The translations under genes and the position numbers were made by a program. The notes under the pieces are model-generated. The model made no database searches. It saw only the letters and a list, made by a program, of their open reading frames with translations, and had not been told where the DNA came from. A DNA stretch of 63,618 bases, filler included, from an uncultured Methanosarcinales archaeon (GTDB lineage: Archaea; Nanobdellota; Nanobdellia; Woesearchaeales; JACPBV01), in NCBI GenBank assembly GCA_964492935.1. It is 7 parts of 7 records of this genome, joined end to end, with 100 filler letters (N's around TTAATTAATTAA, not from the genome) between each part and the next. Parts side by side here need not be neighbours in the genome. Positions count along the whole stretch, not along the records: positions 56,512 to 63,618 come from CAZBLF010000041.1; 6 more parts are not named here. One strand, 5' to 3'. Positions within the stretch are counted from its first letter, which is position 1, and each line of letters starts with the position of its first letter. Of the stretch, positions 2,466 to 63,618 are shown one piece after another.

Positions 2466-2470
2466 ATTGC

Positions 2471-3499: not shown

Positions 3500-3537
3500 T
3501 GTTTTTTGTGTATATTAAAAATAAAAAAGAACGCCAG

Positions 3538-5534: not shown

Positions 5535-5622
5535 GGTATCTCTGTATTTCTCATTTCTGTGTTTTGTATTTTATAAACTTTTCGATACGGGAACTGAGTT
5601 ACTGTCGGGAAGGAGATTCTTA

Positions 5623-8714: not shown

Positions 8715-9914
8715 TTAGTCATCATCCTGCTCACGCAATTCTACTATGACTTCAACAATATGGAGAATGCTGTCAGGGATAATTTTGATGAAGTTGTTAT
8801 CTTCTTCAACGAATGAGTCAATATTGCGCTCAAATACTTTTTTGGTTTGGTCGATGCGAATGAATTTGTCGTTAATGTTGAGGTCTGCTTTCTTTCGTTT
8901 GGTGTCGTCCACGAATTCTACAATGATGTATGCATCGTAGGTGTTATTGCTGATGTCGTCGAAGGTGCTTTCGTTGACTTCGAAAAAGAGTACATGTTCA
9001 GGGGTGTCGATTTCTGTGAAGAACATTTTTACCTGTTCAATTGCATAATTACCGCGTTCGGTTTTGAAAAGAACTTGGTTTTGGCCTGCTCGTAATGCTG
9101 ATACGGGTACTGCAACCTCGTAGCGGTCTGCGCATAATGGTACGGCTCCGAAAATATTTCTTCCATTGATGCTGACGTCTAGGATTCCTACATCGGCTTC
9201 AGATGCACAATATGGAATGAATCTGATTTCGGATTTTTCGATGTTCCTTAATTCGGTATCGGTTAGCGTAAAGGTGTTGCGTCCTTCCTGGCGGGTGTGA
9301 TCGGAGATGTCTCCAATGATTTGGATGGTGTTTAAGGAGTATTCATTGGTTGCCCAGAATCTTGCTCCTACCGATGAAACGCTAAAGGTTATTTCGTTGT
9401 CTTTTTTCAACAATTCTTTCCTGAGTTTAATGGGTTCTGCATTGATTGCAGGTACACGGTATTCGAAAATAGCGTTTCCATTGAGCCAGATGGTGAGGAC
9501 ACCTTTTCTAATGGGTGCCTGGAAATTGAGGATGATGTTGTCTGCATTTTCTAGGTCGTTGATTCTAAACGTGGTTTGTCTTGATTTTTTTACGAACCAG
9601 CTGTTTTGAACGGTAAACGGAGTAATGGTATCCAGCACTTTCGCATTGGTTGTTTCGAAGATGTTGATGTTCGGTAAATCAAGGTCACGCACATTATCGA
9701 CGGGATCTAAGGTTCCTACGTCTTCTTTGAGGAGTTCGACTAACTCTTGGTTTGATGATCCGGAAGAGGAACTTGAAATGGATTTTCCATCGAGTAAATC
9801 ATCTCGATCATCTTGTGGAAGAAACAGGATGTAGGTTATGAGAAATGCAGCCAAGATTGCTACTAATAATGCTGCGTTTGCCCCGCCTTGTGCTCTTTTT
9901 GTTACAATTGCCAT
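8715..9914 (-). CDS. Class III (type IV pilin-like) signal peptide protein with repeated beta-sandwich domains
   Basis: N-terminus KRAQ-GGANAALLVAILAAFLITYILFLP. Internally repeated segments: LTIWLNG..NEITF, LDVSING..NQVLF, ADLNIND..NFIKI. Confidence 0.65.
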   Translation of the reverse strand: MAIVTKRAQGGANAALLVAILAAFLITYILFLPQDDRDDLLDGKSISSSSSGSSNQELVELLKEDVGTLDPVDNVRDLDLPNINIFETTNAKVLDTITPFTVQNSWFVKKSRQTTFRINDLENADNIILNFQAPIRKGVLTIWLNGNAIFEYRVPAINAEPIKLRKELLKKDNEITFSVSSVGARFWATNEYSLNTIQIIGDISDHTRQEGRNTFTLTDTELRNIEKSEIRFIPYCASEADVGILDVSINGRNIFGAVPLCADRYEVAVPVSALRAGQNQVLFKTERGNYAIEQVKMFFTEIDTPEHVLFFEVNESTFDDISNNTYDAYIIVEFVDDTKRKKADLNINDKFIRIDQTKKVFERNIDSFVEEDNNFIKIIPDSILHIVEVIVELREQDDD

Positions 9915-9981
9915 TTTAGCGTATACACTATTACTCCTACTTTGACAATCTTTATATATAAATCTTCTCTTTCTTTGAGTT

Positions 9982-10997
9982 ATGAAATTATTATCCTTTC
10001 AGAAATCGGAAGCCAAGGTCAAGGTTGAGCACGCAGATGACGTGTATTTTCTCAGTCAGATCGTTGGGGTAGGAGATGTCGTTAGAGGGAAGACTATTCG
10101 GAAGATTAAGATTGGGGATGAGGGTGATAGAAAGCAATCTATCGTGAAGAAGCCGGTGACGTTGTCGATCACGGTGGAAAAGGTTTCTTTTAGTAAATCG
10201 GTTGATGCATTACGGGTATCGGGAATTATTACTTCGGGTACGGGAGATGTGCAGAAGGGTGAGCATCATACGTTTTCTCTGGAGCCTGGCATTACGTTTA
10301 CTCTCATAAAGACTTCTTGGTTGTCGTTTCAACGAAAGCGTTTGGAGGAGGCAGCGTCTGAGGAAGTTTCTAAGGTCTTGATTTGCGTTATGGACCGGGA
10401 CGAGGCGCAGTTTGCGTTGTTGAAGAAATATGGGTATAAGATGTTGAGTAGCATCCGAGGCAAGGTTTCGAAGAAGGGCATGGATGAGACGCAGACGGGT
10501 GGTTTTTACAAGGACATTATATCAAAGTTAGAGGATTATGATAAGCGGTTTGGTTTAGTGACCTTGGTGGTTGCGAGTCCTGCTTTTTGGAAGGAGGATC
10601 TTTTGAAAGAGGTTTCTGGGGACATTAAAAAGAAAATCATTCTGGCTACCTGTAATTCGGGAGGAGAGAACGGTATTAATGAGGTGTTGAAGCGTCCCGA
10701 AGTTACGGCTGCATTACAGCAGGATCGAGTTGCGAAAGAGGTAGCGCTGGTTGAGAAACTGCTTGTCGAAATTTCAAAACAGGCGAAGGCAGCTTATGGG
10801 ATACGAGAGACGAAACAGGCGATTGAGAGTGGGGCGGTTGAGCATTTATTGTTGACGGATAGATATATAAAGGAGCTTCACGAGAATGAGAAGTACGCTG
10901 ATTTCGAAAAATTATTGAAGATTGTGGAACAGGCAAAAGGTAATGTACACATCATCTCGGTGGATCATGACGGCGGTAAAAAGCTGCAGGGTCTTGG
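9982..10997 (+). CDS. pelA: Pelota / Dom34 ribosome rescue factor (3' end lost in scaffold gap)
   Basis: DDVYFLSQIV..GD, VRGKTIRK, GEHHT, AAYG, GAVEHLL and GKKLQGL, typical of pelota. Confidence 0.93.
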
Positions 10998-11097
10998 NNN
11001 NNNNNNNNNNNNNNNNNNNNNNNNNNNNNNNNNNNNNNNNNNNNNNNNNNNNNNNNNNNNNNNNNNNNNNNNNNNNNNNNNNNNNNNNNNNNNNNNN

Positions 11098-12334
11098 CCG
11101 TTCTTTGAATGGTATTCTGGTGGAAAACTTAATGTTTCTTACAATTGTTTGGATCGACATATTGAGGACCGTGGTGATAAGGATGCTTTGATTTGGCAGG
11201 GCGAAGGAGATAAAGAGGTTAGGAAATTTACGTATAAGCAATTGCTTGTAGAGGTGTGTCGTTTTGCTTCTGTGTTGAAGAATTTAGGTGTTCGTCGTGG
11301 CGATAGGATTGTTATCTACATGCCGATGATTCCTGAATTGGCGTTTGCAGTGTTAGCTTGTGCTCGTTTGGGTGCAATCCATTCAGTGGTGTTTGGTGGT
11401 TTTTCACCTGTGTCATTAGAGAAGCGTGTCAAGGATTGTGGGGCGAAGGTGGTGATTACGGCAGATGGTGGATTTAGGAGAGGTAAGAAAATTCATCTGA
11501 AAAAGAATGCGGATGAAGCTTTGAAGAAGCGTAAGCATGTTAAGAAAGTGTTAGTTGTTAGGCGGACTAGACAGAAGGTGACGATGAAGCGCGGTCGTGA
11601 TGTTTGGTTGCATGACGAGTTGAAGAAAAAGAATATTGCTGATTATATTGAGCCTGCAGTTATGGATGCAGAGGATCCTCTTTTTATTTTGTATACGTCC
11701 GGCACTACTGGTACGCCAAAAGGGATGGTGCATACGACGGCAGGGTATTTGGTGTATGTTACGTTGACCACTCGAAATGTGTTTGATTTGCGAGAGGATG
11801 ATATCTATTGGTGTACGGCAGATATTGGATGGATTACTGGCCATTCGTATATTGTGTATGGCTTGTTGTCGAATGGTGCAACTTCGTTGATGTTCGAGGG
11901 CACTCCTGATTATCCGCATCCAGATAGATTTTGGGAGATTGTTGAAAAGTTTAAGGTTTCGATTTTCTATACTGCGCCTACTGCGATTCGTGCTATTGAG
12001 CGATCAGGTACAAAATGGGTTACTAAACATGATTTGTCTTCACTTCGTTTGTTGGGGAGTGTTGGAGAGCCGATTAACCCTGAGGCGTGGATGTGGTATT
12101 ACAAAGTCATTGGTAAACGAAAATGTCCTATCGTTGATACATGGTGGCAGACGGAGACCGGCGGGATTATGATTACGCCGCTGCCTGGTGCAACAACACT
12201 ACGTCCTGGTTCGGCTACGTTTCCTTTCTTAGGTATTGAACCTGAAATTTTGACGGATGATGGGAAGAAGGTAAAGCCAAATGAAGGCGGGCATTTGGTG
12301 ATTAAGAAACCGTGGCCGGGTCTTGCGCGAACGG
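11098..12334 (+). CDS. acs: Acetyl-CoA synthetase (AMP-forming), internal fragment
   Basis: [42 protein letters not shown]. Truncated at both ends by N runs. Confidence 0.95.
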
Positions 12335-12434
12335 NNNNNNNNNNNNNNNNNNNNNNNNNNNNNNNNNNNNNNNNNNNNTTAATTAATTAANNNNNNNNNN
12401 NNNNNNNNNNNNNNNNNNNNNNNNNNNNNNNNNN
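12335..12434. other. Artificial contig-join linker (also at 23626-23725, 32473-32572, 41195-41294, 48819-48918, 56412-56511)
   Basis: Identical 44 N + TTAATTAATTAA (stops in all frames) + 44 N at six places. Confidence 0.98.
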
Positions 12435-14937: not shown

Positions 14938-16061
14938 TGAGTTCATACACGTTAGCATTGATGCCGGGAGATGGTATTGGTCCTGAAATTATAGCTGAGG
15001 GTCTAAAGGTTATTGAGAAGGCTTCAGATGTCTATGGATTTTCTGTTGATTGGAAGCGCTATGATAATGGTGCTGAGAAATATCTTAAGACTCAGGAATT
15101 GATAACTGAAGATACGCTGAAGGAGATTAAGGATAGTTGTAAGGCAATCTATCTCGGTGCATTAGGCGATCCACGGGTTACTCCTGGAATTTTGGAGAAG
15201 GGGATTTTATTGAAGACTCGCTTTTATTTTGATCAATTTGTTAATTTACGTCCTATCAAGTTGCTTGAGGGTGTTGCTTGTCCTTTAGTGGGTAAGGGTC
15301 CTAGCGATATTGACTTTACGGTTGTTCGAGAGAATACTGAGGACTTTTATGTGGGTATTGGTGGTCGTGCTTCGGCTGGAACATCAAAGCAATCACTTGA
15401 GGTGTTGCGGGAGATGTACAAGGTTAAGTTTGATTTGGAGATTGAGAATACGGACGAGATCGCGTATCAGATTGGGATGATATCGAAATCGGGAGCTAAT
15501 CGTGTAATTCGGTATGGTTTTGATTTAGCGAAAAGTCAGAATGTTGACACGGCTTACTTTGTGGATAAGGCGAATGTGTTATCTGATATTTACGGTTTTT
15601 GGAGAGAGCAGGTTGAGTCGGTGGGAAAGGATTTTCCAGGGATTAAACCTGAGTATATGTTTGTTGATGCTATTACCATGTGGTTTGTTAAGAATCCTGA
15701 ATGGTTTAAGGTGGTGACTACACCGAACATGTTTGGAGATATTATTACTGATTTAGGAGCTATGATTCAGGGCGGTTTGGGATTGGCTCCGGGTGGAAAT
15801 ATTAATCCTGATGGTGTTTCGATGTTTGAACCTATTCATGGTTCCGCTCCCAAGTATGCAGGCAAGAATGTTGCTAATCCTTTAGCTACGATCTGGGCTG
15901 GTGCTATGATGTTGGATGAGCTTGGTGAGAAGAAAGCTGGTGCTGCTATTGTTGCTGGAATTAGTTCTGTGATTAAGGAAGGTAAAGTGCAGACGAAGGA
16001 TTTGGGTGGAAGTGCAAGTACTTCTGATATGGGCAGTGCGGTTGCTGAGAAATTAATGTAG
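14937..16061 (+). CDS. leuB: 3-isopropylmalate dehydrogenase (isocitrate/isopropylmalate dehydrogenase family)
   Basis: [34 protein letters not shown]. Translationally coupled to leuA. Confidence 0.88.
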
Positions 16062-17147
16062 TACTTTAATCACGTCTTCTACACTTATTGATTGCATGCA
16101 TCGGTTATTATTATTGTTGCAGGGTTTGAATTCTCCTTTGTGGACGTTAATGGTGGGAGAACAGGGGCAGGTAGCTTTGTAGAGTCCTACGCAGTCTTTT
16201 CCTAGGGGCCGGAATCTTATTGGCAGATTGGGTCCGAAGAGTCCTATTGTTTTTGTACCCATGCAGGCTGCTAGATGCATCGGTCCGGAATCGTTTCCTA
16301 TCATGGCTTTGCATTTCGTGAAGAGATAGGCTAGCTGTTTTACCGATGTTTTTCCTGCTAGGTTTATTGATTTGCTTTTCATTTGTGATTGGATGCTTTT
16401 TATTAGTGGTTTTTCGGATTCTACACCGACAAAAATTATTTGGTTTCCTTGCTTTGCTAATTCATCTGCTAGTTTTGCGTATCTTGCAGGTGGCCACATT
16501 CTCTCTTTGGAGGTTTCTGCTAATCCGGGTGCTAATGCAATTACTTTATTTGTTATTTTTTCCTTTTTTATGATGTTGGTGACGGTTTCTTTATCGGTTG
16601 TTGAGACGTCGAGTGGTAGAAGTTCTTTGATGGTTACTTTGGTGTCGATTGCACGTACGAGATCGGCAAAGGTTTCTGAGCAGTGCTGCATGTCATTGTA
16701 AGTTATGGTTTTATTGTAGCATTTCGCTCTTGACCCATGATTGTAGCCTATGGTATACTTTCCTAGTTTGAACGCTAGGATGGCTGAGATATTGAGATAT
16801 TCTTCCATGTCGATGACGAGATCGTATGTTCCGATATTCATTGTGCTGTAGAGCTCTATTTTTAGGATGTTTAGTGGGAGAATTTCTATTTTGTCTATGA
16901 AATTTTGTCCTTCGAATACTTCCTTATTTCTTTTTGTAGCAAGAACGGTAATTTTTGATTTGGGATAGTGTTGACGGAGTGCTTTGATTGTGGGAAGTGT
17001 AAGGATGGTTTCTCCGATGCCCCAGAGTTGGATGATGAGAATGTTTTCGGTTTTGAAAGTAGTCTTCTTTCTCTTGAAGGTTCCAAAGATGTTGCAGATG
17101 GTGCTTCCTAGCAACTTGTCTAGCTTTCTGATGAGGGGGACTGCCAT
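16053..17147 (-). CDS. Glycosyltransferase family 9 (heptosyltransferase-like)
   Basis: [50 protein letters not shown]. Confidence 0.9.
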
Positions 17148-23625: not shown

Positions 23626-23774
23626 NNNNNNNNNNNNNNNNNNNNNNNNNNNNNNNNNNNNNNNNNNNNTTAATTAATTAANNNNNNNNNNNNNNNNNNN
23701 NNNNNNNNNNNNNNNNNNNNNNNNNAAGTGATTACTTTGACGATTCCACTATGGCTTTAGCCTAGTGGTAGTTC

Positions 23775-31093: not shown

Positions 31094-31564
31094 CTATTCT
31101 TGAGGAAAAAAGAAATTGAGATGTTCTTTGTAGTCTCTGAAGGTATGGGGGAATGTTTGTGGCTTTCCATTAATGACTTCGATGACGGTGTGGGCGTAGA
31201 TGTCCTTTGCAATTTCTTCCTTTACTTGGTTTCTTGGTTTGAATGATGCTAGGGTTAGTTCTGAGGCAGTCAGATAGCCGGGATCGATGTTGATGGTACG
31301 TTTGTTGTTTTTGGTGAATAGTGCTTCTATTGCTGTTATTTCGTGTTTGATGGTGGCTAGTTGGTCGGTTTGTATCTCTTTTTGGAAGATAATGAACTGC
31401 TTTTTTAGGTTGGTTCCGAACTCTTCTTCGTAGTATTGTGTGTAGTCAAAGTTATAGGGTGTGTTTTCTTTTTGTATTGGGCCGTATTTGGTGGTGAGTT
31501 CTTGTTTGCACTGGTTTAGCGTCTCTTCTTGTGCATACATGATTGCCATGATAAGCTTAGTCAT
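31094..31564 (-). CDS. DUF4416-family protein
   Basis: FDYTQYYEEEFG, RTINIDPGYL, LASFK, FPHTFRDY. Confidence 0.8.
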   Translation of the reverse strand: MTKLIMAIMYAQEETLNQCKQELTTKYGPIQKENTPYNFDYTQYYEEEFGTNLKKQFIIFQKEIQTDQLATIKHEITAIEALFTKNNKRTINIDPGYLTASELTLASFKPRNQVKEEIAKDIYAHTVIEVINGKPQTFPHTFRDYKEHLNFFFPQE

Positions 31565-32472: not shown

Positions 32473-32574
32473 NNNNNNNNNNNNNNNNNNNNNNNNNNNN
32501 NNNNNNNNNNNNNNNNTTAATTAATTAANNNNNNNNNNNNNNNNNNNNNNNNNNNNNNNNNNNNNNNNNNNNTC

Positions 32575-35896: not shown

Positions 35897-36229
35897 TTAA
35901 CCAGCAAACAGACTCACTGCCAACAGCGTCAGAATAAAAGCAATCACATACTGCAAAATCCACACTAAAATAGCCTTTCCCGTGGTCAATTTAAAAGCAA
36001 CCCGATACACCAGAGACGTAGCCAGCAACGAAGCAATACTCGCATACAAGCCCAAATACGTCAATGCAGCCAGCGAAAAGGCCGACAACAAAATACTCAG
36101 CAAGATAACTTTCATCAAACTAGCCTCGCCACCCACCAATTTAACGGCAAAATACAACGGCAACAAAGAAATCACCAAGGCTCCGCCCAAGAACAACAAA
36201 TTCCCTGTCAACAAATCTATTCCAACCAT
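35897..36229 (-). CDS. Small four-TM membrane protein
   Basis: 110 aa, almost entirely hydrophobic. Confidence 0.7.
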   Translation of the reverse strand: MVGIDLLTGNLLFLGGALVISLLPLYFAVKLVGGEASLMKVILLSILLSAFSLAALTYLGLYASIASLLATSLVYRVAFKLTTGKAILVWILQYVIAFILTLLAVSLFAG

Positions 36230-36876
36230 TTTTTCTCCAGAGCTAATAACACTCCACCTAATACTATAAAAAAGTTTGCACCCAGCAAAAACGTCTTCAT
36301 AATAGCAGTCCCCATATCAACAAAAAACGTCTGAGGATACAGTAAGATCAGATTACTAGACGAAGAAAACTGCCATGTCCCATCAGCAAAAAATAACCCA
36401 TGGAAAGCCGTAAACAATCCATCAAACCAAAACACAATCCCCGAAATAACCAAGAGCGCAAAAACCAAGTTAATAACGCCAGCATACAACAACAGCCGCC
36501 GAAGAACAACCAATCTATGAACACCAAACACCCAATACCCAGAAAAAAGCACCAAGAAGAACACAACACCACTCAACATAAACATTATCCGACCCACCGA
36601 AACAACAGCACGAACATCAGAAAGATGACTCACCTCGTCAGCAGTAAACACATCAACCAATAACTCATCTCCAGAACCAGAAACATACGCAACAACCGCA
36701 TCATTCACCAACGAAGCTGAAAATGCAGTCTTTTCCTCAACCGAATACTGAGCAAAATCATAATGCGCATCAGAAAAAGCATTCCCAAAAAAGCTAACAC
36801 CCAAAAGCAAAAAGAACGACGAAACAACAAACAACACACCAAGTAACCAACCAATCTTCATAAGAACAAGAATCAC
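36217..36876 (-). CDS. DUF1461 / TIGR01906-like integral membrane protein
   Basis: EVSHLSDVR, FDGLFTAFHGLFF..WQF, LILLYPQTFF. Confidence 0.8.
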   Translation of the reverse strand: MILVLMKIGWLLGVLFVVSSFFLLLGVSFFGNAFSDAHYDFAQYSVEEKTAFSASLVNDAVVAYVSGSGDELLVDVFTADEVSHLSDVRAVVSVGRIMFMLSGVVFFLVLFSGYWVFGVHRLVVLRRLLLYAGVINLVFALLVISGIVFWFDGLFTAFHGLFFADGTWQFSSSSNLILLYPQTFFVDMGTAIMKTFLLGANFFIVLGGVLLALEKKWLE

Positions 36877-41194: not shown

Positions 41195-41307
41195 NNNNNN
41201 NNNNNNNNNNNNNNNNNNNNNNNNNNNNNNNNNNNNNNTTAATTAATTAANNNNNNNNNNNNNNNNNNNNNNNNNNNNNNNNNNNNNNNNNNNNAAAAAG
41301 AAAAAAG

Positions 41308-48818: not shown

Positions 48819-48918
48819 NNNNNNNNNNNNNNNNNNNNNNNNNNNNNNNNNNNNNNNNNNNNTTAATTAATTAANNNNNNNNNNNNNNNNNNNNNNNNNN
48901 NNNNNNNNNNNNNNNNNN

Positions 48919-50572: not shown

Positions 50573-51250
50573 ATGGAAAACGTGCCGCGACATGTTGCTG
50601 TCATTCTAGATGGTAATCGAAGATATGCCCAGGAAAATGGGATGCCTAAACTTGAGGGTCATCGCAAGGGTATTGAAAAGATTGGTGAGATGTTGCAGTG
50701 GTGTATGGATTCCGGTGTTCGCGAGCTTACGTTATACTGTTTGAGTACCGAGAATTTTGATCGGGATCAGAAGGAGGTTGATTATTTGTTCAAGTTGTTG
50801 CGAGATAAAATTAAATCGTTTTCTTCTGACAAGCAGATTCATGATAACAAGGTTAGAATTAAGGTAGTTGGAAGATTATCTCTGTTTCCGGATGATATTC
50901 GTGGGGAGATGGAGAAGGTGATGGGGGAGACTGCTCCCTATACTGATTATACTCTGAATCTGGCGATGGCGTATGGTTCTCGTGCTGAAATTGTGGATGC
51001 GGTGAAGAATTTAGTTGAGTCGGGAGAGGAGATTACTGAAGATGCTCTCGGTGACCGTCTGTATGTTACTTCGGATGTGGATCTTCTTATTAGGCCGGGT
51101 GGTGAGAAGCGAATTAGTAACTTTTTGTTGTGGCAGAACTCATATAGTGAGATTATTTGGGTGGATGCGTTATGGCCTGCTTTTTCTAAGGAAGATTTTG
51201 ATGGTTGTTTGTCGGAATTTAAGAATAGACAGCGAAGATATGGAAAATGA
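50573..51250 (+). CDS. uppS: cis-prenyltransferase (undecaprenyl/polyprenyl diphosphate synthase)
   Basis: HVAVILDGNRRYA, STENF, DLLIRPGGEKRISNFLLWQ, RQRRYG. Confidence 0.95.
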   Translation: MENVPRHVAVILDGNRRYAQENGMPKLEGHRKGIEKIGEMLQWCMDSGVRELTLYCLSTENFDRDQKEVDYLFKLLRDKIKSFSSDKQIHDNKVRIKVVGRLSLFPDDIRGEMEKVMGETAPYTDYTLNLAMAYGSRAEIVDAVKNLVESGEEITEDALGDRLYVTSDVDLLIRPGGEKRISNFLLWQNSYSEIIWVDALWPAFSKEDFDGCLSEFKNRQRRYGK

Positions 51251-56411: not shown

Positions 56412-56700
56412 NNNNNNNNNNNNNNNNNNNNNNNNNNNNNNNNNNNNNNNNNNNNTTAATTAATTAANNNNNNNNNNNNNNNNNNNNNNNNNNNNNNNNN
56501 NNNNNNNNNNNGTTATTTAGCGTTTATCACTCTGCTAAAGCAGAGTACGGAATTCTCCTTTAAATACTGGTTGATTATTCATTAGTATGTGGTTTCACAC
56601 TAATTATTTTATTCCGCCGGCTGAGTTTGATAGTACCGGTAGTAAGAGTTTGACTCGTCCTGGGAACTTTCGATGTACGGGCGAATCGAAGGAGTAGGCG

Positions 56701-57756
56701 ATGAGTAAGGATGTATTTTCTCCAGCTTCTTTTATTGGGGTTGAAGGCGCGGACATTATTTCATTTGGATCGGGACAGCCGGATTTGCCGCCTCCTCAAG
56801 AAGCTTTTTCGTGTTTGCCTACATATCGTTCTTTTAAGTATGGGTTAATAGCTGGATTGCCTAAATTACGTTCTGCATTGGCTGCTGAGAATCCTGGTTT
56901 TTCACAGGATCATTTTGTTATTACGAATGGTGGATCGGAGGCATTGGATTTGGTGTTGCGGTCTGTTGCAAAGCCGGGCGATAAGATTATGATTCATGCT
57001 CCGTATTATTACTCGTATAAACCGTTGATTGAGAAGAATCATTTGGTGCCTGTTATTGTACATACTACAAAGGGTAAGATTAACATGGATGAGTTTTTAT
57101 CTAAGATTGAGGGATGTAAGGCCGTTATCATTAATTCTCCCTCTAATCCTACTGGTCGATTGCAGGATATTGCGGATTTGAAGGTGATTGAAAAAAGGAC
57201 TCAGGAGTTGGGTATTGTTTTGCTCTCGGATGAGGTGTATAAGGATCTTATTTATGAGCGAGAGAATTATGATCTATCGGGTCCGCACGTGGTTACTATT
57301 AATTCTTTTTCTAAAACGTTTGCGATGTGTGGGTTTCGGGTAGGGTATGTTTTTTCTAATGATTTGTCGATTATTGAGAAGATTGTTGCTCTTAAAACAC
57401 ACAGTTCGATGAACACTAATATTTTGGGGCAGGAGATGGCTTATCATGCTATCTGTGCACCGAAATCATATACTTCTGAGCAGGTTTCGATATGGAAAGA
57501 AAGGCGTGATTTGATTTATACTAGGATGCAGGAGATGGGGCTTTCTGTTTGGAAACCTGAAGGTGCGTTTTACATCTTTCCTAAGATAGCTGATTCGCTT
57601 TCGTTTTCTGAAGAATTGTTTAAGAAGCATAAGGTGATTACTTATCCAGGCGATTGGTTTGGACAGCCGGGACATGTTCGGTTCTCGTATGCTCTGGATG
57701 TTGATAAGATTACTCTCGGGTTGAAGCGGGTTAGTGCTTTTCTTGAGTCGCGTTAG
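56701..57756 (+). CDS. PLP-dependent class I/II aminotransferase
   Basis: GQPD, NSPSNPTG, SDEVY, SFSKTFAMCGFRVGY, PEGAFY. Confidence 0.93.
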   Translation: MSKDVFSPASFIGVEGADIISFGSGQPDLPPPQEAFSCLPTYRSFKYGLIAGLPKLRSALAAENPGFSQDHFVITNGGSEALDLVLRSVAKPGDKIMIHAPYYYSYKPLIEKNHLVPVIVHTTKGKINMDEFLSKIEGCKAVIINSPSNPTGRLQDIADLKVIEKRTQELGIVLLSDEVYKDLIYERENYDLSGPHVVTINSFSKTFAMCGFRVGYVFSNDLSIIEKIVALKTHSSMNTNILGQEMAYHAICAPKSYTSEQVSIWKERRDLIYTRMQEMGLSVWKPEGAFYIFPKIADSLSFSEELFKKHKVITYPGDWFGQPGHVRFSYALDVDKITLGLKRVSAFLESR

Positions 57757-58687
57757 TCTTCGCGCGTCTTAATTCTACGGGGTCGATGAAGGTTACGTCT
57801 TCTTGCATTAAGGTTAATTCTTCTTTTGTGGCTCCTTTTGTGGTGAAATAGTGTGCTATCTCTTGGACTAGGGATTCTGGGGCTGAGGCTCCGGCGCTTA
57901 TGCCTACAGTTTGGATGTTTTCTAGCCAGTCTTCTTGGATTTGATTTACATCATCTACTAGGTAGGCTGGTTTTTTTGTTTTCGCGGTTTCTACCAGTCT
58001 TATGGAATTTGAGGAGTTGGTTGAACCTACTACTAACACTAGGTCTACTTTTTGTGCTAATTGTTTGATTGCGTGCTGTCTATTTGTTGTTGCATAGCAG
58101 ATGTCTTCTTTTGGTGGATCGCGGATTTGAGGGTATTTTTGCTTTAGAGCAAGAACAATTTTCTTTGTGTCGTCGATGCTTAGGGTGGTTTGGGTGAGAT
58201 AGATTAATTTTTCTGGGTTTTCGATATTTAGATTTTGTACGTCTTGGATGGTTTCTACTAAGGGGATGTCATTAGGGAGTTCGCCTAGTACGCCAATGCC
58301 TTCTACGTGACCATGATGGCCGATATAGATTATTTTGTAGCCTTGCTTTGCAAAGCGATGCACTTCGAAGTGTACCTTGGTAACTAGTGGGCAAGTCGCA
58401 TCTATTAATTTGAGATTCTTATGTTTAGCTTGCTCGTATTGTTCTGGTGGAGAGCCATGTGCTGAAAATACTACTACTGCATTGTCTGGAATTTCGTTGA
58501 TTGCTTCTATGGTAATTGCTCCTTTTTTTTCTAATGCGTCTACTACGTACTTATTATGGACGATTTGGTGTTTGACGTAGACGGGCTTTCCAAAGAGTTC
58601 TAGGCATTCTTCAACTACTTTGATTGCTCGATCTACTCCTGCGCAGAAGCCGCGAGGTGCAATAAGCATTACTTTTTGGACTGGCAT
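57731..58687 (-). CDS. ispH: 4-hydroxy-3-methylbut-2-enyl diphosphate reductase (MEP pathway)
   Basis: PRGFCAGVDRA, IVHN, SAHG, DATCPLVTKVH, QTTLS, DICYATTNRQ, SSNS, AGASAP. Confidence 0.96.
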   Translation of the reverse strand: MPVQKVMLIAPRGFCAGVDRAIKVVEECLELFGKPVYVKHQIVHNKYVVDALEKKGAITIEAINEIPDNAVVVFSAHGSPPEQYEQAKHKNLKLIDATCPLVTKVHFEVHRFAKQGYKIIYIGHHGHVEGIGVLGELPNDIPLVETIQDVQNLNIENPEKLIYLTQTTLSIDDTKKIVLALKQKYPQIRDPPKEDICYATTNRQHAIKQLAQKVDLVLVVGSTNSSNSIRLVETAKTKKPAYLVDDVNQIQEDWLENIQTVGISAGASAPESLVQEIAHYFTTKGATKEELTLMQEDVTFIDPVELRRAKTNATQEKH

Positions 58688-58761
58688 ACTTTCAGTAAGT
58701 GGTTTTCCTTTTTAATAGTTGCTCAGTAAGGTTTTTAAAACGATTTCTGTTCTTTTCGGGT

Positions 58762-59808
58762 ATGAGTTTTGAATCTCCAATATTGGCTGTGTATTCTGAA
58801 AATGGTATCCCTTCAGGTCCTGAAGATCAGGGTGCAAAAATTCTCAGATATCAAGACGAAGATACTCTTAAGTGGGCCCTTGCCCTCTGCAATATAACTT
58901 TTCATGCTGCGTCTAAAGTGAGTGTTTCTCCGCAGGGGGCTGTCACACTCAGAAAACGGAACCTTGAGGCTTTGGTTGCTTTGGAGTCGCCTGAGATGCA
59001 TCCTAGCGAAGGGAGAGGATACTTACTCACTGAAGATCGTGGATCGGATGGGATCGGTACTCGTTTTGCTTTTCCAGGGAATGTCTCTTCACTCAGTCAA
59101 GAAAGTGGTTTTCCTGTGTTGGAAAAGTATCTGATCACCTTTGATGTTTCTCGCGGCACTATCGAACGGTATGGTGTTTCTCAGGGTTCTGCTCTCACAT
59201 TTCCTAAGGATAAATTCATTTATACTAGCAGTAGCCGTGTCAGTATTCGACAGGGGAGTGGACAGGTGACTAATTTTATGCTCGATGGCTATGCTGCGAT
59301 TGCCCTCTCTGTGCTCTTGAAGAATAAAGGAGATTCATTCTCCAAAGAGGAGCTCAGGTTCATGGGTTCGCCGAGCATAGATTCATTTCGTACGATGCTC
59401 GCCCATCTTCGCCAGGCATTTGAACATTGTGAAGGTTACTCTTGGGATCGTTCTCCTGAACAAGACAGCTATCGTATTTGTAACCCGGGAGATGAGCGTC
59501 CAGCTGAAGTAAGTGGGCCCAGTTACCAGGTTCGTCGAGAGGGGTCTACTGTTACTATCATTGGTGGAAATCATGAGTATACTTGCGATCGTGATTCCCC
59601 TGAAGAGAGGATATTGATATTTTTTGTAGATAATCCGGGGAATCCTGTATCGAGAGAACGCCTTATGGAAATTTCGGGGGCTAATATTCGGATAGCTGGT
59701 AGGGCTATCAAATCTATCCGAGACTGGTGTAGAGATGAGGGTTTCAGAATAAATGACTACTCTCAGGGCCAGTATGGATTCCCCATGAAGATAGAGGATG
59801 TTTCTTAA
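58762..59808 (+). CDS. Hypothetical protein with two probable C-terminal winged-helix domains
   Basis: Repeated LSVLLKNKGDSFSKEEL and LIFFVDNPGNPVSRERL..IKSIR..GQYGF segments, resembling OmpR/PhoB-type DNA-binding domains. Confidence 0.55.
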   Translation: MSFESPILAVYSENGIPSGPEDQGAKILRYQDEDTLKWALALCNITFHAASKVSVSPQGAVTLRKRNLEALVALESPEMHPSEGRGYLLTEDRGSDGIGTRFAFPGNVSSLSQESGFPVLEKYLITFDVSRGTIERYGVSQGSALTFPKDKFIYTSSSRVSIRQGSGQVTNFMLDGYAAIALSVLLKNKGDSFSKEELRFMGSPSIDSFRTMLAHLRQAFEHCEGYSWDRSPEQDSYRICNPGDERPAEVSGPSYQVRREGSTVTIIGGNHEYTCDRDSPEERILIFFVDNPGNPVSRERLMEISGANIRIAGRAIKSIRDWCRDEGFRINDYSQGQYGFPMKIEDVS

Positions 59809-59890
59809 TTGGGATCTCATAGCATTCTTTTTTCGCTCTGCTTGTTCTGAAATAAAAGGTTTTAAGAAGATAGTTGTACTTCAGAGAGGT

Positions 59891-60643
59891 ATGGCTTACG
59901 CTGAGATTACTAGGGAGGGTGCAGTTTCTATTATAACGCTGAATCGCCCTGAGAAATTGAATAGTTTTGATACTGAGTGTATTGCTTCTTTGGAAAAAGC
60001 TATTGCTGAAATCGGGGAGAGTGATGCGCGCGTTGTGATTATTACTGGCAAGGGTAGGGCTTTTTGTGCGGGCGGAGATATTGCCTGGGAGAAGACGCTT
60101 GGTGAGATGGATGCTAGTGAGACTGAGAATGTGATGAGTGGTTTGCAGAGGCTGTTTTGCTCGATTGAGGAATTAAAGCAGCCTGTTATTGCTGCGGTTA
60201 ACGGTCACGCGGTTGGTGGGGGAGCTGAATTAGCTATGGCTTGTGATATTAGAATTGCAAATGATTCTGCTGTTTTTATCCAACCTGAAACTTCGTTAGG
60301 AGTGGTTGCACCGTTAGGTGCTACACAGCGATTGCCACGGTTGGTGGGATTGGGAAGAGCTAAATTGATGTTATACTCTGGCGGTCCGATTGATGGTACC
60401 ACTGCTGCTGAATGGGGATTGATGGATTTGTTGGTAGAGGATGTTATGAACTCTGCTTTGGAGCTTGCGCATGCTATTGCTGAGAAACCGGCTGCAGCGG
60501 TGAGTGCTACTAAGAAGCTGGTGAATAAGCATTATCTTGATGATTTACAGGATGCGGATGAATTGAGGGAGTATGTTAAGAGTGCTCATTCTGAAGAAAA
60601 TAAGAAACGTCTGCAGGCATTTCTTGATAGAAAAAAGAAATAA
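59891..60643 (+). CDS. Enoyl-CoA hydratase/isomerase (crotonase) family protein
   Basis: ITLNRPEKLN, AFCAGGD, AVNGHAVGGGAELAMACD, QPE, GATQRLPRLVG. Confidence 0.93.
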   Translation: MAYAEITREGAVSIITLNRPEKLNSFDTECIASLEKAIAEIGESDARVVIITGKGRAFCAGGDIAWEKTLGEMDASETENVMSGLQRLFCSIEELKQPVIAAVNGHAVGGGAELAMACDIRIANDSAVFIQPETSLGVVAPLGATQRLPRLVGLGRAKLMLYSGGPIDGTTAAEWGLMDLLVEDVMNSALELAHAIAEKPAAAVSATKKLVNKHYLDDLQDADELREYVKSAHSEENKKRLQAFLDRKKK

Positions 60644-60683
60644 CTTGCAAAAGGTTTAAAAGGTTGTTTCTGATTGTTGGAGT

Positions 60684-61208
60684 ATGGTTGCTGATATTGT
60701 TCTCATTGGATTTAAGGGGTCTGGAAAGACGGTTATTGGTAGGATGTTGGCTAAGCGTATGAAAAAGACATTCGTGGATGTGGACGAGGTTATTGAGATT
60801 CTGTATGAACAGCGGACTTCGCAACGGCATACGGTGAGGTCGATTTTTGAGTCAAAGGGAGAGCATTATTTTAGAGAACTTGAACATGAGGCGTTGGTGG
60901 AGGTTGCTACCGGTAAAGAGATGGTGGTGAGTACCGGTGGTGGCGCGGTCATGGATGAGCGGAATAGGGAGATTTTGAAGAAGCTCGGAAGGGTGGTGTA
61001 CTTGGATGTTGATAAAACATTATTATTGGAGAGAAGTATGCAGAAGAGTTTGGCAGCTATTTATGATAAGAAGCACCCTGAGGCGAGTTTTAAGGTGCTG
61101 TATGAACAGCGGAAAGATATTTATACTGCATTAGCGGATATTACGCTAGGCATTACAAACGAGGAAAAGAGCGCAATAGTCGATCAGATTATGGAGAAAG
61201 TGAAATGA
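60684..61208 (+). CDS. aroK: Shikimate kinase, bacterial AroK type
   Basis: IVLIGFKGSGKT, GEHYFRELE, VSTGGG. Confidence 0.9.
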   Translation: MVADIVLIGFKGSGKTVIGRMLAKRMKKTFVDVDEVIEILYEQRTSQRHTVRSIFESKGEHYFRELEHEALVEVATGKEMVVSTGGGAVMDERNREILKKLGRVVYLDVDKTLLLERSMQKSLAAIYDKKHPEASFKVLYEQRKDIYTALADITLGITNEEKSAIVDQIMEKVK

Positions 61209-62260
61209 GCAATAGTTTAGGGGAGCATTTTAGAATTACTACCTTTGGCGAGAGTCATGGCCCTGCCTTAGGGGTGGTGGTGGATGGCGTTACTCCTGGA
61301 TTGAAGATTTCTGTAAAAGAGATTCAGGATCAGCTCGATAGAAGGAAACCGGGACAGAAATTAACGAGTCCGAGGAAGGAAAGTGATCGGGTTGAGGTGT
61401 TAAGTGGGATTTTCGAGGGTAAGACTACGGGTATGCCGATTGCGTTGCTGATTCGTAACAAGGATGCTCATAGTAAGTCGTATGATCATTTGAAGGATCT
61501 TTTTCGACCGGGACATGCTGACTTTACCTATTTGAAGAAATATGGAATTCGCGATCATCGCGGTGGTGGCAGACAGAGCGCAAGAGAAACTGCAAACTGG
61601 GTTGCGGCTGGCGCGATTGCTCGGAAAATTATTGCTCAGCATAAGATTAGGATTGTTGCGTCGGTTGTGGAGATTGCAGGCGTTCATGCTACGGTATATG
61701 ACCCTAAAGAAATTTCAAAAAATGCGGTGAATTGTGGAGATAAGAAAGCTGCGGAAAACATGGTGGCTGCTATTGAAAAAGCTCGCAAGGAGGGAGATTC
61801 TGTGGGCGGTATTATTGAGGTTGTTGCTGAAAACGTGCCGATAGGATTAGGTGAACCGGTCTTTGATAAATTAGATGCGAATCTGGCGAAGGCGTTGATG
61901 AGTATTAACGCGGCGAAAGGTGTTGAAATTGGTTCAGGTTTTGAGGGTGCACGGATGCGAGGGAGTGAACATAACGATCTTTTTGTTAAGAAAGGTGGAA
62001 GAGTTGTTACGAAAACAAACCATGCCGGTGGTATTTTGGGCGGTATTTCGAATGGGATGCCGCTTGTGGCGAGAGTTGCATTTAAGCCTACTTCATCTAT
62101 TACTCAGGAGCAGAATACGGTAACGGTTGCAGGTAAAAAAGCAAAAGTTCGTGTGTTTGGACGGCACGATCCATGTGTTGCTATTAGGGCTGTTCCTATC
62201 GTTGAGGCGATGATGGCGAATGTGTTGGCGGATGCTCTTTTGAGTCAGAATGCGAATTAG
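61205..62260 (+). CDS. aroC: Chorismate synthase
   Basis: TFGESHG, RPGHAD, RGGGRQSARET, GGILGGISNG, GRHDPC. Confidence 0.97.
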   Translation: MSNSLGEHFRITTFGESHGPALGVVVDGVTPGLKISVKEIQDQLDRRKPGQKLTSPRKESDRVEVLSGIFEGKTTGMPIALLIRNKDAHSKSYDHLKDLFRPGHADFTYLKKYGIRDHRGGGRQSARETANWVAAGAIARKIIAQHKIRIVASVVEIAGVHATVYDPKEISKNAVNCGDKKAAENMVAAIEKARKEGDSVGGIIEVVAENVPIGLGEPVFDKLDANLAKALMSINAAKGVEIGSGFEGARMRGSEHNDLFVKKGGRVVTKTNHAGGILGGISNGMPLVARVAFKPTSSITQEQNTVTVAGKKAKVRVFGRHDPCVAIRAVPIVEAMMANVLADALLSQNAN

Positions 62261-62937
62261 TAGAGATATTCTTTATTGCACAGTTCTCCTAGGCGTTTCA
62301 TCATCATTCTAGTAACGTGTTGTATGGTTTCGGGGTCGTCTTTCTTTGCATAATAGCTGCTCAGATCTATGGGCTCTCCAATGTTGACCGTCATCCTATG
62401 AAATCTGGGAATGACTGAATGTTGTGGGGGAAGAATTCTTTCTGAATTGATAATCCCTGCAGGAATTACTTTTACCTTGGTGGAGAGTGCGAGACGTGCT
62501 GCTCCAGTTTTTGCTTTTAGGAGTTGTTTACGATCTTCATTTAGTAATCCCTCGGGAAAGATAATTAGGCATTGACCTTTATTCAGACTTTCAACACACT
62601 TCTCCATTGCGCCGTCTTTAAAGATAGTTATGGGCTCGAAAAAAAGTCTGCAGAAGCTGAAGAGTACCTTGTAGACTAGATTGAAGTATGCTTTCTTTCT
62701 GGAGAGAACAAATCTGACTATGACACTTGTTCGTTTGTTGATGGGGAGATTTCTCTTGAACTTTATTTGTGCCTTCGAATATATTCCGAGCGGTAGAGCC
62801 GAGCAAAAGAAATCTGCCGCGCTATTATGATTGGTCAGTAAGATATACCCTTCATTGATGGGGAAATTTTCTATTCCGGTAACTTTCTTGATGTACAGAT
62901 TCGCCAATAATTTTATTAGATGAAATCGTACTTGCAT
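62257..62937 (-). CDS. plsC: 1-acyl-sn-glycerol-3-phosphate acyltransferase family protein (copy 2)
   Basis: NHNSAAD (HX4D), IFPEG, KTGAARLA, VIPAGI. Confidence 0.85.
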   Translation of the reverse strand: MQVRFHLIKLLANLYIKKVTGIENFPINEGYILLTNHNSAADFFCSALPLGIYSKAQIKFKRNLPINKRTSVIVRFVLSRKKAYFNLVYKVLFSFCRLFFEPITIFKDGAMEKCVESLNKGQCLIIFPEGLLNEDRKQLLKAKTGAARLALSTKVKVIPAGIINSERILPPQHSVIPRFHRMTVNIGEPIDLSSYYAKKDDPETIQHVTRMMMKRLGELCNKEYLY

Positions 62938-62938
62938 T

Positions 62939-63583
62939 TTAGTGGTGCTTGGTGTAGCTATACTTCGCTCCAAGAAGATCTGCGATATGTTCCATTATGT
63001 TTGTGGTAACATGCTCTAATGTCTCGTAATCGTCCCGCTTTTTTGAGTATTTGTTGAAATTGAGTGGAGCCCCTATCTTAATGGTGATTCTCCTTCTTAA
63101 TTTGGGGAATGGTCGCTCTTTAGACCAGATTTCTCTTGTTCCCTTAATTCCTACGGGAACTACGGGAACTCGCCCATTGAGTACTAGTCGCGCTACCCCT
63201 GTTTTTCCGCGCATCAGTTTCTTTTTCCTGCTAGGGATACCTTCTGGAAAGATGCAGACCATGTGGCCCCCCTCCAATTTCCGGATTGCTGGCTTGATGT
63301 AGCTTCCTCGTACGCCTCGTTTTAGGCGTATGCTTCCTCCGAATTCACTGAAGAGGGTCGTTGTAAGGAAATCAAGAGCAAAAAACATGGCGGAAATCAC
63401 ATAGCATTTTCTTCGTTTTGCACGCCGCTTAAACGCGCTGAGAATGACAAAAATATCGATGAAACTCATATGATTGGCAGCGATGATAAAGGGTCCTTTT
63501 TTTGGGATGTTGTCTAGTCCTTCAACGCGCTTAATCAGGAGGTGGAGTAGGGGCATTACTAACGAGCCAATGTGAAAGACCAT
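62939..63583 (-). CDS. plsC: 1-acyl-sn-glycerol-3-phosphate acyltransferase family protein (copy 1)
   Basis: ANHMSFID (HX4D), IFPEG, KTGVARL, VPVVPVGI. Confidence 0.88.
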   Translation of the reverse strand: MVFHIGSLVMPLLHLLIKRVEGLDNIPKKGPFIIAANHMSFIDIFVILSAFKRRAKRRKCYVISAMFFALDFLTTTLFSEFGGSIRLKRGVRGSYIKPAIRKLEGGHMVCIFPEGIPSRKKKLMRGKTGVARLVLNGRVPVVPVGIKGTREIWSKERPFPKLRRRITIKIGAPLNFNKYSKKRDDYETLEHVTTNIMEHIADLLGAKYSYTKHH

Positions 63584-63618
63584 GGGGTTACAAGTAGATA
63601 GTTGTTTTTATGTGTTCG

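Follow-up and report, generated by a model that had tools for sequence, protein, structure and literature searches.

The DNA analysed here (the window, 63,618 nucleotides in total) consists of seven contigs of one metagenome-assembled genome (MAG) from the archaeal order Woesearchaeales (contigs C33, C35, C37, C38, C39, C40 and C41 of assembly GCA_964492935.1), laid end to end with N44-TTAATTAATTAA-N44 spacers, and co-occurrence in the window does not imply linkage between genes on different pieces. The subject of this work is the last contig, C41 (window 56512-63618, 7107 bp), on which the whole finding lies: it carries genes for IspH, a crotonase and two tandem acyltransferases (AT1 and AT2), the latter with a probable connection to phospholipid synthesis. 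The source MAG (G000) comprises 1.15 Mb in 57 contigs, and is 84.8% complete with 0.13% contamination. Comparisons were made within its GTDB family (14 genomes, G000-G013; some counts were repeated without the unpublished G009 and G010, n=12) and with an order-level sample of 151 genomes; related genomes are not independent samples. L numbers (e.g. L070) are labels for individual loci or contigs compared in this analysis. The genes of C41 on which the argument turns are the following:

57731-58687, minus strand: IspH (HMBPP reductase), long E. coli-like type, 318 aa (PF02401 317 bits, cut-off 24.5)
59891-60643, plus strand: enoyl-CoA hydratase (crotonase), short-chain type, 250 aa (PF00378 190 bits)
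60684-61208, plus strand: AroK/SKI, bacterial-type shikimate kinase (PF01202 131 bits); its stop overlaps the AroC start
61205-62260, plus strand: chorismate synthase AroC (PF01264 481 bits; TIGR00033 456 bits vs 212)
62257-62937, minus strand: AT2 (paralog group B2), 226 aa (PF01553 57 bits vs 23; H37-x4-D42; FPEG)
62939-63583, minus strand: AT1 (paralog group B1), 214 aa (PF01553 83 bits vs 23; H38-x4-D43; FPEG at 112-115)

An initial annotation of this DNA had named four of these genes (IspH, the crotonase and the two acyltransferases), and all four were found where it had placed them. AroK, followed by AroC, lies between the crotonase and the acyltransferases and had gone unnamed. The start of AT2 is the ATG directly after the AT1 stop, and the two genes are predicted to form a co-transcribed pair.

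The description of AT1 and AT2 as adjacent HX4D acyltransferases was borne out by the PF01553 domain and by the HX4D and FPEG motifs, which are present in both. Residues H38, D43, E114 and G115 of AT1 are invariant across 47 homologs. At block II, whose arginine we take to bind the phosphate of the acceptor, AT1 aligns with the segment GGSIRLKRG; AT2 and its group carry a deletion at this place and are without the Arg. The AT2 group is rare, with only five cluster representatives at E<=1e-30 among 1.84 billion. When genome contigs were scanned with AT1, near relatives being left out, 24 loci were obtained, 23 of them bacterial (20-37% identity) and one from Woesearchaeota (29%).

Archaeal origin of C41

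The initial annotation had cautioned that C41 itself contains no archaeal marker gene. This was correct: the clear archaeal markers of the window (RFC, an aRF1/pelota-like protein, aIF2-beta, thermosome, STT3/AglB, an ATP-dependent ligase, diphthamide synthase and a GAN-type DHH protein) are all on other contigs, and binning was therefore the first question to settle. With every gene of C41 bacterial in type, the contig could be mis-binned bacterial DNA. In tetranucleotide composition, one of the checks that had been proposed, C41 correlated with the rest of the MAG at 0.937, within the range (0.89-0.95) of ten contigs of 5.6-8.7 kb.

Promoter motifs had also been pointed out earlier. In the whole of G000 a TATA-like hexamer starting at -31 to -27 precedes about 50% of 981 open reading frames (ORFs), and elsewhere its frequency is at most 2% per position. 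The strict motif was found at three of the six unit heads of C41:

58710-58715, minus strand: TATA-like box TTAAAA, 28 nt upstream of the IspH start
58734-58739, plus strand: TATA-like box TTTAAA, 28 nt upstream of ATG 58762, the start of an ORF of unknown family divergent from IspH
60655-60660, plus strand: TATA-like box TTTAAA, 29 nt upstream of the AroK start

The crotonase and AT1 are preceded by near-TATA motifs recognized by eye, and an aminotransferase gene (see below) by none.

Physical linkage was provided by a metagenome contig, L070 (7541 bp), which is 100% identical to C41 positions 2261-7107 (4847-bp overlap) and continues beyond. There it encodes a 114-aa aIF-1A, 45 nt upstream of AT1 (TIGR00523 109.8 bits vs 102.9), and next a 668-aa Ig-domain surface protein; its final 205 bp are identical to the start of G000 contig C16, whose opening genes encode an RDD protein and an S49 peptidase. 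A single contig of the same-genus genome G012 (G012:C34) has the order S49-RDD-surface protein-aIF1A-acyltransferase-AroC-AroK-IspH, and by this matching gene order synteny independently supports the C41-aIF-1A-C16 join.

A reservation about the join comes from four further, independent runs, whose contigs were aligned on L070 (pieces all at least 99% identical to it). In none of the four does a contig span the AT1/aIF-1A junction. The contigs break at L070 4793-4822 with 30-nt overlaps, there is a competing continuation to the left of 4793, and in every one of the four runs the aIF-1A side has about twice the depth. Taken together, the breaks, the alternative path and the depth step indicate that the junction is strain-variable; our reading is that co-existing strains share the aIF-1A side and that only some of them carry the C41 arrangement. 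The evidence for the junction consists of L070 itself, the last 54 nt of C41 and the synteny. A second recurrent branch point of the assembly graph, at L070 6947-7053, is a high-depth repeat inside the surface-protein gene. Mobile elements are present near the strain-variable region, an IS200-like Y1 transposase and a LAGLIDADG-domain ORF being encoded on G000:C16 (L150:1636-2064 and 9421-10248).

Near-identical copies of the 5.85-kb stretch from IspH to AT1 are indexed in 20 DNA runs from 17 studies, of which five are possibly the source of this DNA; no RNA run is listed among the holders of the stretch.

Mis-binning was thus tested and rejected, and we regard it as highly improbable. The bacterial type of the genes, the missing marker and the unbridged junction are what it has in its favor. 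Against it stand the archaeal TATA boxes at the distance characteristic of this genome, the connection of C41 to aIF-1A and C16 through L070, the identical gene order in G012:C34, and the occurrence of IspH in 14/14 and of PF01553 acyltransferases in 13/14 genomes of the family, where the contigs concerned reach 95 kb and include archaeal uS15, uS2 or RadA. The genes belong to an archaeon: C41 is a genuine, strain-variable chromosome stretch of a marine DPANN archaeon, and the named homologs point to Nanoarchaeota/Woesearchaeota.

GpsA-linked acyltransferases, MEP genes and other features

A strong GpsA match (160-193 bits) was obtained in 13 of the 14 family genomes. A tandem acyltransferase (AT) pair lies directly beside GpsA in ten of them (G001, G002, G003, G005, G006, G007, G009, G011, G012 and G013) and a single AT in G000 (on contig C21) and G010; without G009 and G010 the counts are 9/12 for tandem and 1/12 for single. 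G008 has AT and GpsA genes on separate contigs, and G004 (83% complete) has neither. The unit in G003, G001 and G011 reads thiolase-FabG-ACAD-EtfB-EtfA-AT-AT-GpsA (ACAD, acyl-CoA dehydrogenase; Etf, electron transfer flavoprotein, ETF), and contig G012:C4 begins with AT-AT-GpsA. At all four of these loci the AT-AT-GpsA unit converges on archaeal uS2, followed by RadA (G003, G011, G012) or Hjc (G001). The corresponding order on G000:C21 is DUF362-thiolase-FabG-AT-GpsA-uS2 (FabG, TIGR01830 302.6 vs 297.75; GpsA, NF000942 393 vs 257; uS2_euk_arch 249 vs 211.5). In the order-level sample GpsA occurs in 28/151 genomes, and of the 17 with a close GpsA (E<=1e-88) 16 also have IspH.

G000 encodes four PlsC-family paralogs. 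In a quick IQ-TREE maximum likelihood tree, from which over-long read-through ORFs (Helicobacter, Oceaniferula, Terriglobia) had been dropped beforehand, the GpsA-linked groups A1 and A2, group B1 (AT1) and group B2 (AT2) each lie behind a supported branch (SH-aLRT 97, 95, 96 and 100, respectively), and the four groups stand together apart from eight named bacterial rows with a support of 84; the deep nodes are weak. In G000 the A2 ortholog (G000:C1:53492-54913; L042:4493-5914, minus strand) and an NrdG-like radical-SAM activase share one reading frame, a 473-aa ORF directly upstream of NrdD that may be a real fusion or may have arisen by loss of a stop codon.

B1 orthologs adjoin PgsA-type CDP-alcohol phosphatidyltransferases, a gene for a 485-aa radical-SAM protein and an M64-like gene at 4/4 loci annotated outside the genus (G002, G003, G008 and G013). 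In G000 itself the radical-SAM/M64 pair is divergent from CarS-Psd-PssA, next to uL1/uL10 (G000:C3:13014-16932, L036). The G000 CarS scores above the cut-off of NF003114, the equivalog for CDP-archaeol synthase (150.4 bits vs 148), and a CTP_transf_1 match considered as CdsA proved to be this same CarS, which takes the position of CdsA; PgsA is on C23 (TIGR00560 153 bits vs 109). Taking into account that the AT paralogs are in a conserved GpsA operon and that B1 relatives lie beside CDP-alcohol phosphatidyltransferases, a role in glycerol-3-phosphate (G3P) acyl-lipids is the best reading of the acyltransferases.

The conserved radical-SAM protein of 485-495 aa, which with the M64-like gene lies beside head-group genes (L036, L024, L027, L028, L029), may be the 'Mss' match reported for Woesearchaeia; it gave no informative PDB match (best E 0.0039) and only weak NCBIfam matches. 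Near the B1 locus, G002 and G003 carry a bacterial-type AspRS with a GAD insertion domain (L024:1495-3270 and L027:9747-11498). On G000:C9:76-1940 (L045) a phosphonopyruvate decarboxylase (TIGR03297 293 bits, under the cut-off of 312.5) adjoins a PsrA-like Fe-alcohol dehydrogenase, which hints at phosphonate (e.g. 2-aminoethylphosphonate) synthesis, possibly for head groups or glycans.

The search for dxs, dxr and ispD-G that had been proposed earlier revealed every step of the methylerythritol phosphate (MEP) pathway in G000. On contig C7 Dxs lies next to Dxr, and fused IspDF, IspE, archaeal uS15 and TFE-alpha are encoded there too; IspG is on C26, adjoining a wyosine radical-SAM gene, and IspH, which catalyses the final MEP step, is on C41. 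IspH is intact, as described initially, with Cys15, Cys99 and Cys197 aligned to the cluster Cys columns of E. coli IspH 3ZGL (325 bits, alignment over 304 residues), which presumably ligate the 4Fe-4S cluster, and it passes both TIGR00216 (328.5 bits vs 187.85) and NF002190 (421 vs 389). Its occurrence throughout the family (12/12 without G009 and G010) compares with 47/151 in the order sample.

Two types of IspH are found in the family, an operon type of about 272 aa (L008, L010-L012, L014, L016-L019) and an E. coli-like type of about 318 aa (G000, G006, G007; L013, L015). A complete dxs-ispG-dxr-ispDF-ispE-ispH operon abuts archaeal uS15 in 3/3 operon-type loci annotated (G002, G003 and G011). 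The G000 protein shares 71-73% identity with its counterparts in G006 and G007, against 31-37% with the operon-type proteins of nine other genomes in the family. This split suggests that the operon copy was replaced in a sub-lineage by a second, E. coli-like xenolog beside AroK/AroC; judged by its sequence, the IspH of C41 looks like a xenologous replacement. Its nearest named relatives (62-65% identity) are proteins of Nanoarchaeia, Micrarchaeota and candidate phyla radiation (CPR) Moranbacteria. The AroK-AroC pair is also present in G012 and G007. Next to it in G007 (L031:1301-2401, G007:C14) there is an activator with a sigma-54 interaction domain (PF00158, 198 bits), a bacterial enhancer-binding protein unexpected in an archaeal MAG.

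The ORF of the crotonase spans 59798-60643, its likely true start being ATG 59891. The assignment as enoyl-CoA hydratase held: both catalytic Glu residues, E113 and E133, align to C. acetobutylicum crotonase 5Z7R (155 bits). The protein reaches no NCBIfam equivalog cut-off (best 195 bits vs 394). Its nearest homologs are 92% (a European Nucleotide Archive (ENA) contig), 57% (a Nanoarchaeota MAG) and 44-46% (Firmicutes, Archaeoglobaceae) identical; the first of these appears to be encoded on one 32.9-kb contig together with a 92%-identical IspH. In the same-genus G012 IspH and AroK have no ORF between them. The crotonase and the ORF of unknown family form a strain-specific insertion between IspH and AroK, and we leave the crotonase out of the lipid route. 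It was considered as the missing hydratase of the thiolase-FabG-ACAD-ETF cluster of the relatives and rejected in that role, since a search of the 13 other genomes of the family did not find it (0/13) and tblastn detected neither ACAD nor ETF in G000.

The chances are about even that the crotonase, and the thiolase-FabG-ACAD-ETF genes of the relatives, serve fermentation or energy conservation (butyrate-type or beta-oxidation) and that the crotonase is near the acyltransferases by chance. Its closest structure-linked matches, the short-chain crotonase 5Z7R and the 3-hydroxypropionyl-CoA dehydratase 5ZAI, fit such a role, as do its confinement to G000 within the family, its separation from the acyltransferases by AroK and AroC, and its position on the opposite strand; in the available text of PMC8421398 EtfAB/Bcd are treated as energy genes. 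A pure energy role is harder to reconcile with the relatives, where the genes from thiolase to ETF directly adjoin AT-AT-GpsA and point the same way, an arrangement that suggests one transcription unit joining acyl-CoA chemistry to lipid assembly. On C41 itself IspH, AroK/AroC, the crotonase and the acyltransferases are neighbors from different pathways, and the data do not support their being one functional unit.

The remaining features of C41 and of the window are listed below.

56701-57756, plus strand: class I/II pyridoxal phosphate aminotransferase (PF00155 178 bits; best NCBIfam matches all under cut-offs)
58762-59808, plus strand: unknown 348-aa protein (no Pfam/NCBIfam family; weak winged-helix (Trans_reg_C) leads)
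50573-51250, plus strand: UppS, cis-prenyltransferase, on contig C40 (PF01255 250 bits; TIGR00055 235 bits vs cut-off 110)
12335-12434, 23626-23725, 32473-32572, 41195-41294, 48819-48918 and 56412-56511: artificial spacers, the last being the C40/C41 joint

The aminotransferase gene, convergent with IspH with a 26-nt overlap, is a neighbor outside the lipid story. For the unknown 348-aa protein the Atlas leads (0.90-0.91) are unnamed CPR clusters, and its own model has a pLDDT of 0.45; it has no counterpart between IspH and AroK in G012. UppS is a likely consumer of MEP-derived isopentenyl diphosphate (IPP). Further bacterial-envelope-type genes of the window encode a homolog of Lit (lipoprotein intramolecular transacylase; 36217-36876), a GT9 heptosyltransferase (16053-17147) and a DUF4416 protein (31094-31564). 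An 802-aa ORF at 9982-12390, in which eRF1 and AMP-binding domains are combined, is spurious: it runs across a 100-N scaffold gap (10998-11097) and merges the pelota/aRF1-like gene with a 3'-truncated acetate-CoA ligase. Scans of the window for tRNA genes and Rfam families gave no match.

A candidate route to G3P phospholipids

Archaeal membranes are built of isoprenoid ethers of glycerol-1-phosphate (G1P) and bacterial membranes of fatty-acyl esters of G3P; this lipid divide lies at the heart of thinking on eukaryogenesis and on how early cells evolved. Of the archaeal ether-lipid set (mevalonate (MVA) pathway, G1P dehydrogenase, GGGPS, DGGGPS and CarS) only CarS was found in G000. HMG-CoA reductase was not found there, nor was G1P dehydrogenase (best NF002022 matches 32 and 29 bits vs 413), and two PF13685 matches considered for the latter turned out to be AroB (TIGR01357 387 bits) and the Fe-alcohol dehydrogenase of the phosphonate pathway. 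There was no convincing GGGPS (best 28.8 bits, a partial match), and a UbiA-type prenyltransferase, present in 5/14 family genomes, was not found in G000. The comparison of gpsA, plsY and cdsA with GGGPS/DGGGPS that had been suggested initially thus gave a mixed outcome for a bacterial-type set: GpsA is present, CarS stands in the place of CdsA and no convincing GGGPS or UbiA was seen in G000, but PlsY, the one component looked for among PlsX, PlsY and PlsB, was found in 0/14 family genomes.

What the analysis shows is the identity of the genes, their motifs, the fold, their linkage and distribution, and their origin in an archaeon. In the region bacteria-derived genes of several pathways are juxtaposed, including an acyltransferase pair paralogous to that of the GpsA operon, and together with the genes on other contigs they probably reflect a chimeric route to G3P phospholipids. 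In such a route GpsA would produce sn-glycerol-3-phosphate, and the GpsA-linked HX4D pair would use acyl thioesters for two acylations of G3P or of lyso-forms, giving phosphatidic acid. The archaeal-type CarS would activate phosphatidic acid with CTP to a CDP-activated lipid, to which PssA/Psd and PgsA would add head groups. The C41 pair would most likely acylate or re-acylate lyso-phospholipids, in remodelling or with a second specificity. IPP derived from the MEP pathway would be directed to polyprenol carriers (UppS, AglB-dependent glycosylation) and not to membrane lipids.

The structurally defined bacterial lysophosphatidic acid acyltransferase (LPAAT) of T. maritima, PlsC 5KYM, resembles the C41 proteins in its HX4D and FPEG motifs and is the best match of AT1 in both sequence (48 bits, 26% identity) and fold; AT2 aligns well to it only over the C-terminal half. 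The AlphaFold2 model of AT1 has a pLDDT of 85.7 and one short N-terminal helix (residues 5-16). In a Foldseek search with it 5KYM came first (E 1.9e-10, TM 0.61), followed by human glycerol-3-phosphate acyltransferase (GPAT) 1 (8E4Y) and the plastid GPATs 8IA1, 1IUQ and 1K30, and also by LpxM and PatA.

A number of observations weigh against the proposed route. The same Foldseek search does not separate LPAAT from GPAT, LpxM or PatA, and both proteins are below the LPAAT cut-off (TIGR00530 52.3 bits for AT1 and 40.8 for AT2 vs 102.95; NF011593 20 bits vs 501). The N-terminal two-helix membrane anchor of the T. maritima enzyme is missing from AT1 and AT2: the alignments begin at 5KYM residue 66, and only about 19 residues of AT1 precede the aligned region. 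Failing TIGR00530 and devoid of the anchor, AT1 is not a textbook PlsC. AT2 is without the block-II Arg region, and the catalytic His is replaced by Gln in 2/7 aligned B2-like homologs (P0362 and P0366); AT2 itself keeps this residue and is possibly a diverged or partly degenerate partner. From their sequences we file both predicted enzymes under the AGPAT superfamily as 'like PlsC/GPAT' and claim no LPAAT membership for them.

The supply of acyl chains is a further point on the same side. G000 contains no ketoacyl synthase, no ACAD or ETF (see above) and only a marginal PP-binding match, and an AMP-binding ORF on C33 considered as fatty-acid ligase proved to be an acetate-CoA ligase (NF001208 702 bits vs 657). 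No source of long acyl chains is apparent in this genome. The suggestion in the initial annotation that they could be host-derived obtained no specific support, the AMP-binding enzyme checked being the acetate-CoA ligase just mentioned. A trans-prenyl synthase (PF00348) was not found in G000 though the MEP pathway and UppS are present; either the enzyme is encoded in the 15% of the genome that the assembly lacks, or the primer has another source. With G000 only 84.8% complete, absences from it are provisional. According to the available parts of PMC8421398 and PMC11868695, cultured DPANN archaea obtain lipids from hosts. Finally, the enzymatic steps are all predicted from the genes, as are the donor and the acceptor of the acyl groups and the lipid products.

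Ester-lipid capacity in an archaeon, as proposed in the initial annotation, stood in several respects (the MEP pathway is complete, the acyltransferases have GpsA-linked paralogs and no ether-lipid genes other than CarS were found) but not in others, because the genes of C41 are not one unit and the acyltransferases miss the LPAAT cut-off.

A broader, rather tentative reading is that the whole DPANN family discarded the archaeal membrane-lipid pathway and would build bacterial-type membranes by the chimeric route (GpsA; A1, A2, B1 and B2; a re-purposed CarS; PssA/Psd and PgsA), the MEP pathway being kept only for polyprenol carriers. In this family-wide form acyl-CoA may come from an ACP-independent thiolase-FabG-ACAD/ETF cycle.

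It is also conceivable, though in our view unlikely, that the genes serve scavenging or remodelling only. No phospholipids would then be made de novo, the acyltransferases would re-acylate lyso-lipids of a bacterial or archaeal host or other acceptors, and GpsA would belong to glycerol metabolism. The small genome fits this, as do the acyltransferase scores under the LPAAT equivalog cut-offs and the fact that neither a ketoacyl synthase of type II fatty acid synthesis nor ACAD/ETF, PlsY or a long-chain acyl-CoA ligase was seen in G000. It accounts less well for the GpsA operon, in which GpsA is joined to two ATs in 10/14 genomes and to thiolase-FabG-ACAD-ETF in 3/4 loci annotated, and the retention of a full CarS-PssA-Psd-PgsA set is hard to explain without phosphatidate made in the cell.

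Published systems and significance

Parts of this gene set have been described before; the statements that follow refer to the available portions of the papers cited. Castelle et al. (2021, PMC8204110) defined a MEP clade of 52 Woesearchaeota genomes with co-located MEP genes, and reported genes of 'bacterial fatty acid synthesis', including G3P dehydrogenase, that are sometimes co-located. Huang et al. (2021, PMC8421398) described a subgroup J with MEP genes, fused ispDF and EtfAB/Bcd, and without GGGPS/DGGGPS, from whose absence they concluded that membrane lipids may not be made. The genome studied here resembles these MEP-clade Woesearchaeota in its full bacterial MEP pathway, fused ispDF, GpsA, and in that no GGGPS/DGGGPS was found, and differs from them in its IspH, which is a separate xenolog of the E. 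coli-like kind and shares 31-37% identity with the operon type. The word 'acyltransferase' is absent from the main text of PMC8204110 and 'PlsC' from PMC8421398; the AT-AT-GpsA operon and CarS/PssA/Psd/PgsA are not mentioned in them, supplementary tables apart.

Coleman et al. (2019, PMC6431249, citing Villanueva et al. 2017) found GpsA in Woesearchaeota and PlsC in DPANN bins, interpreted them as transfers from Bacteria, and regarded such genes as patchily distributed and a part in membrane synthesis as improbable. In contrast, within the present family the genes are near-universal (13/14), operonic and linked to archaeal core genes. Castillo Boukhchtaber et al. (2025, PMC11868695) reported matches to Mss, Ger and ElbD in Black Sea Woesearchaeia MAGs; their proposal that Woesearchaeia make or modify bacterial-like lipids is paralleled here by the 485-495-aa radical-SAM protein beside the B1 acyltransferase, PgsA or CarS, but they assume host-derived building blocks, unlike the route proposed here. 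The bacteria of the Fibrobacteres-Chlorobi-Bacteroidetes (FCB) group with archaeal ether-lipid genes (Villanueva et al. 2021, PMC7852524), likewise inferred from genomes, represent the mirror-image breach of the divide, in the opposite direction. Expression of FCB-group genes in E. coli yielded archaeal-type phospholipids and a mixed membrane (PMC6431249), whereas the route proposed here is predicted from genes.

The presence of MEP genes, G3P dehydrogenase and PlsC in Woesearchaeota/DPANN is thus already published (PMC8204110, PMC8421398, PMC6431249), and it is the conserved AT-AT-GpsA operon and the chimera with CarS that go beyond what was found in these papers, supplementary tables apart. 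For this locus the binning doubt is removed. The genes are near-universal within the one family, where they form an operon (AT-AT-GpsA) set among archaeal core genes and are accompanied by head-group genes and an archaeal CarS that has been retained; G1P dehydrogenase, GGGPS and the MVA pathway were not found. The family-wide operon and the chimeric pathway amount to a sharper, testable hypothesis, in which the question whether an archaeon can make bacterial-type phospholipids is reduced to a short, defined set of genes that can be expressed and assayed.

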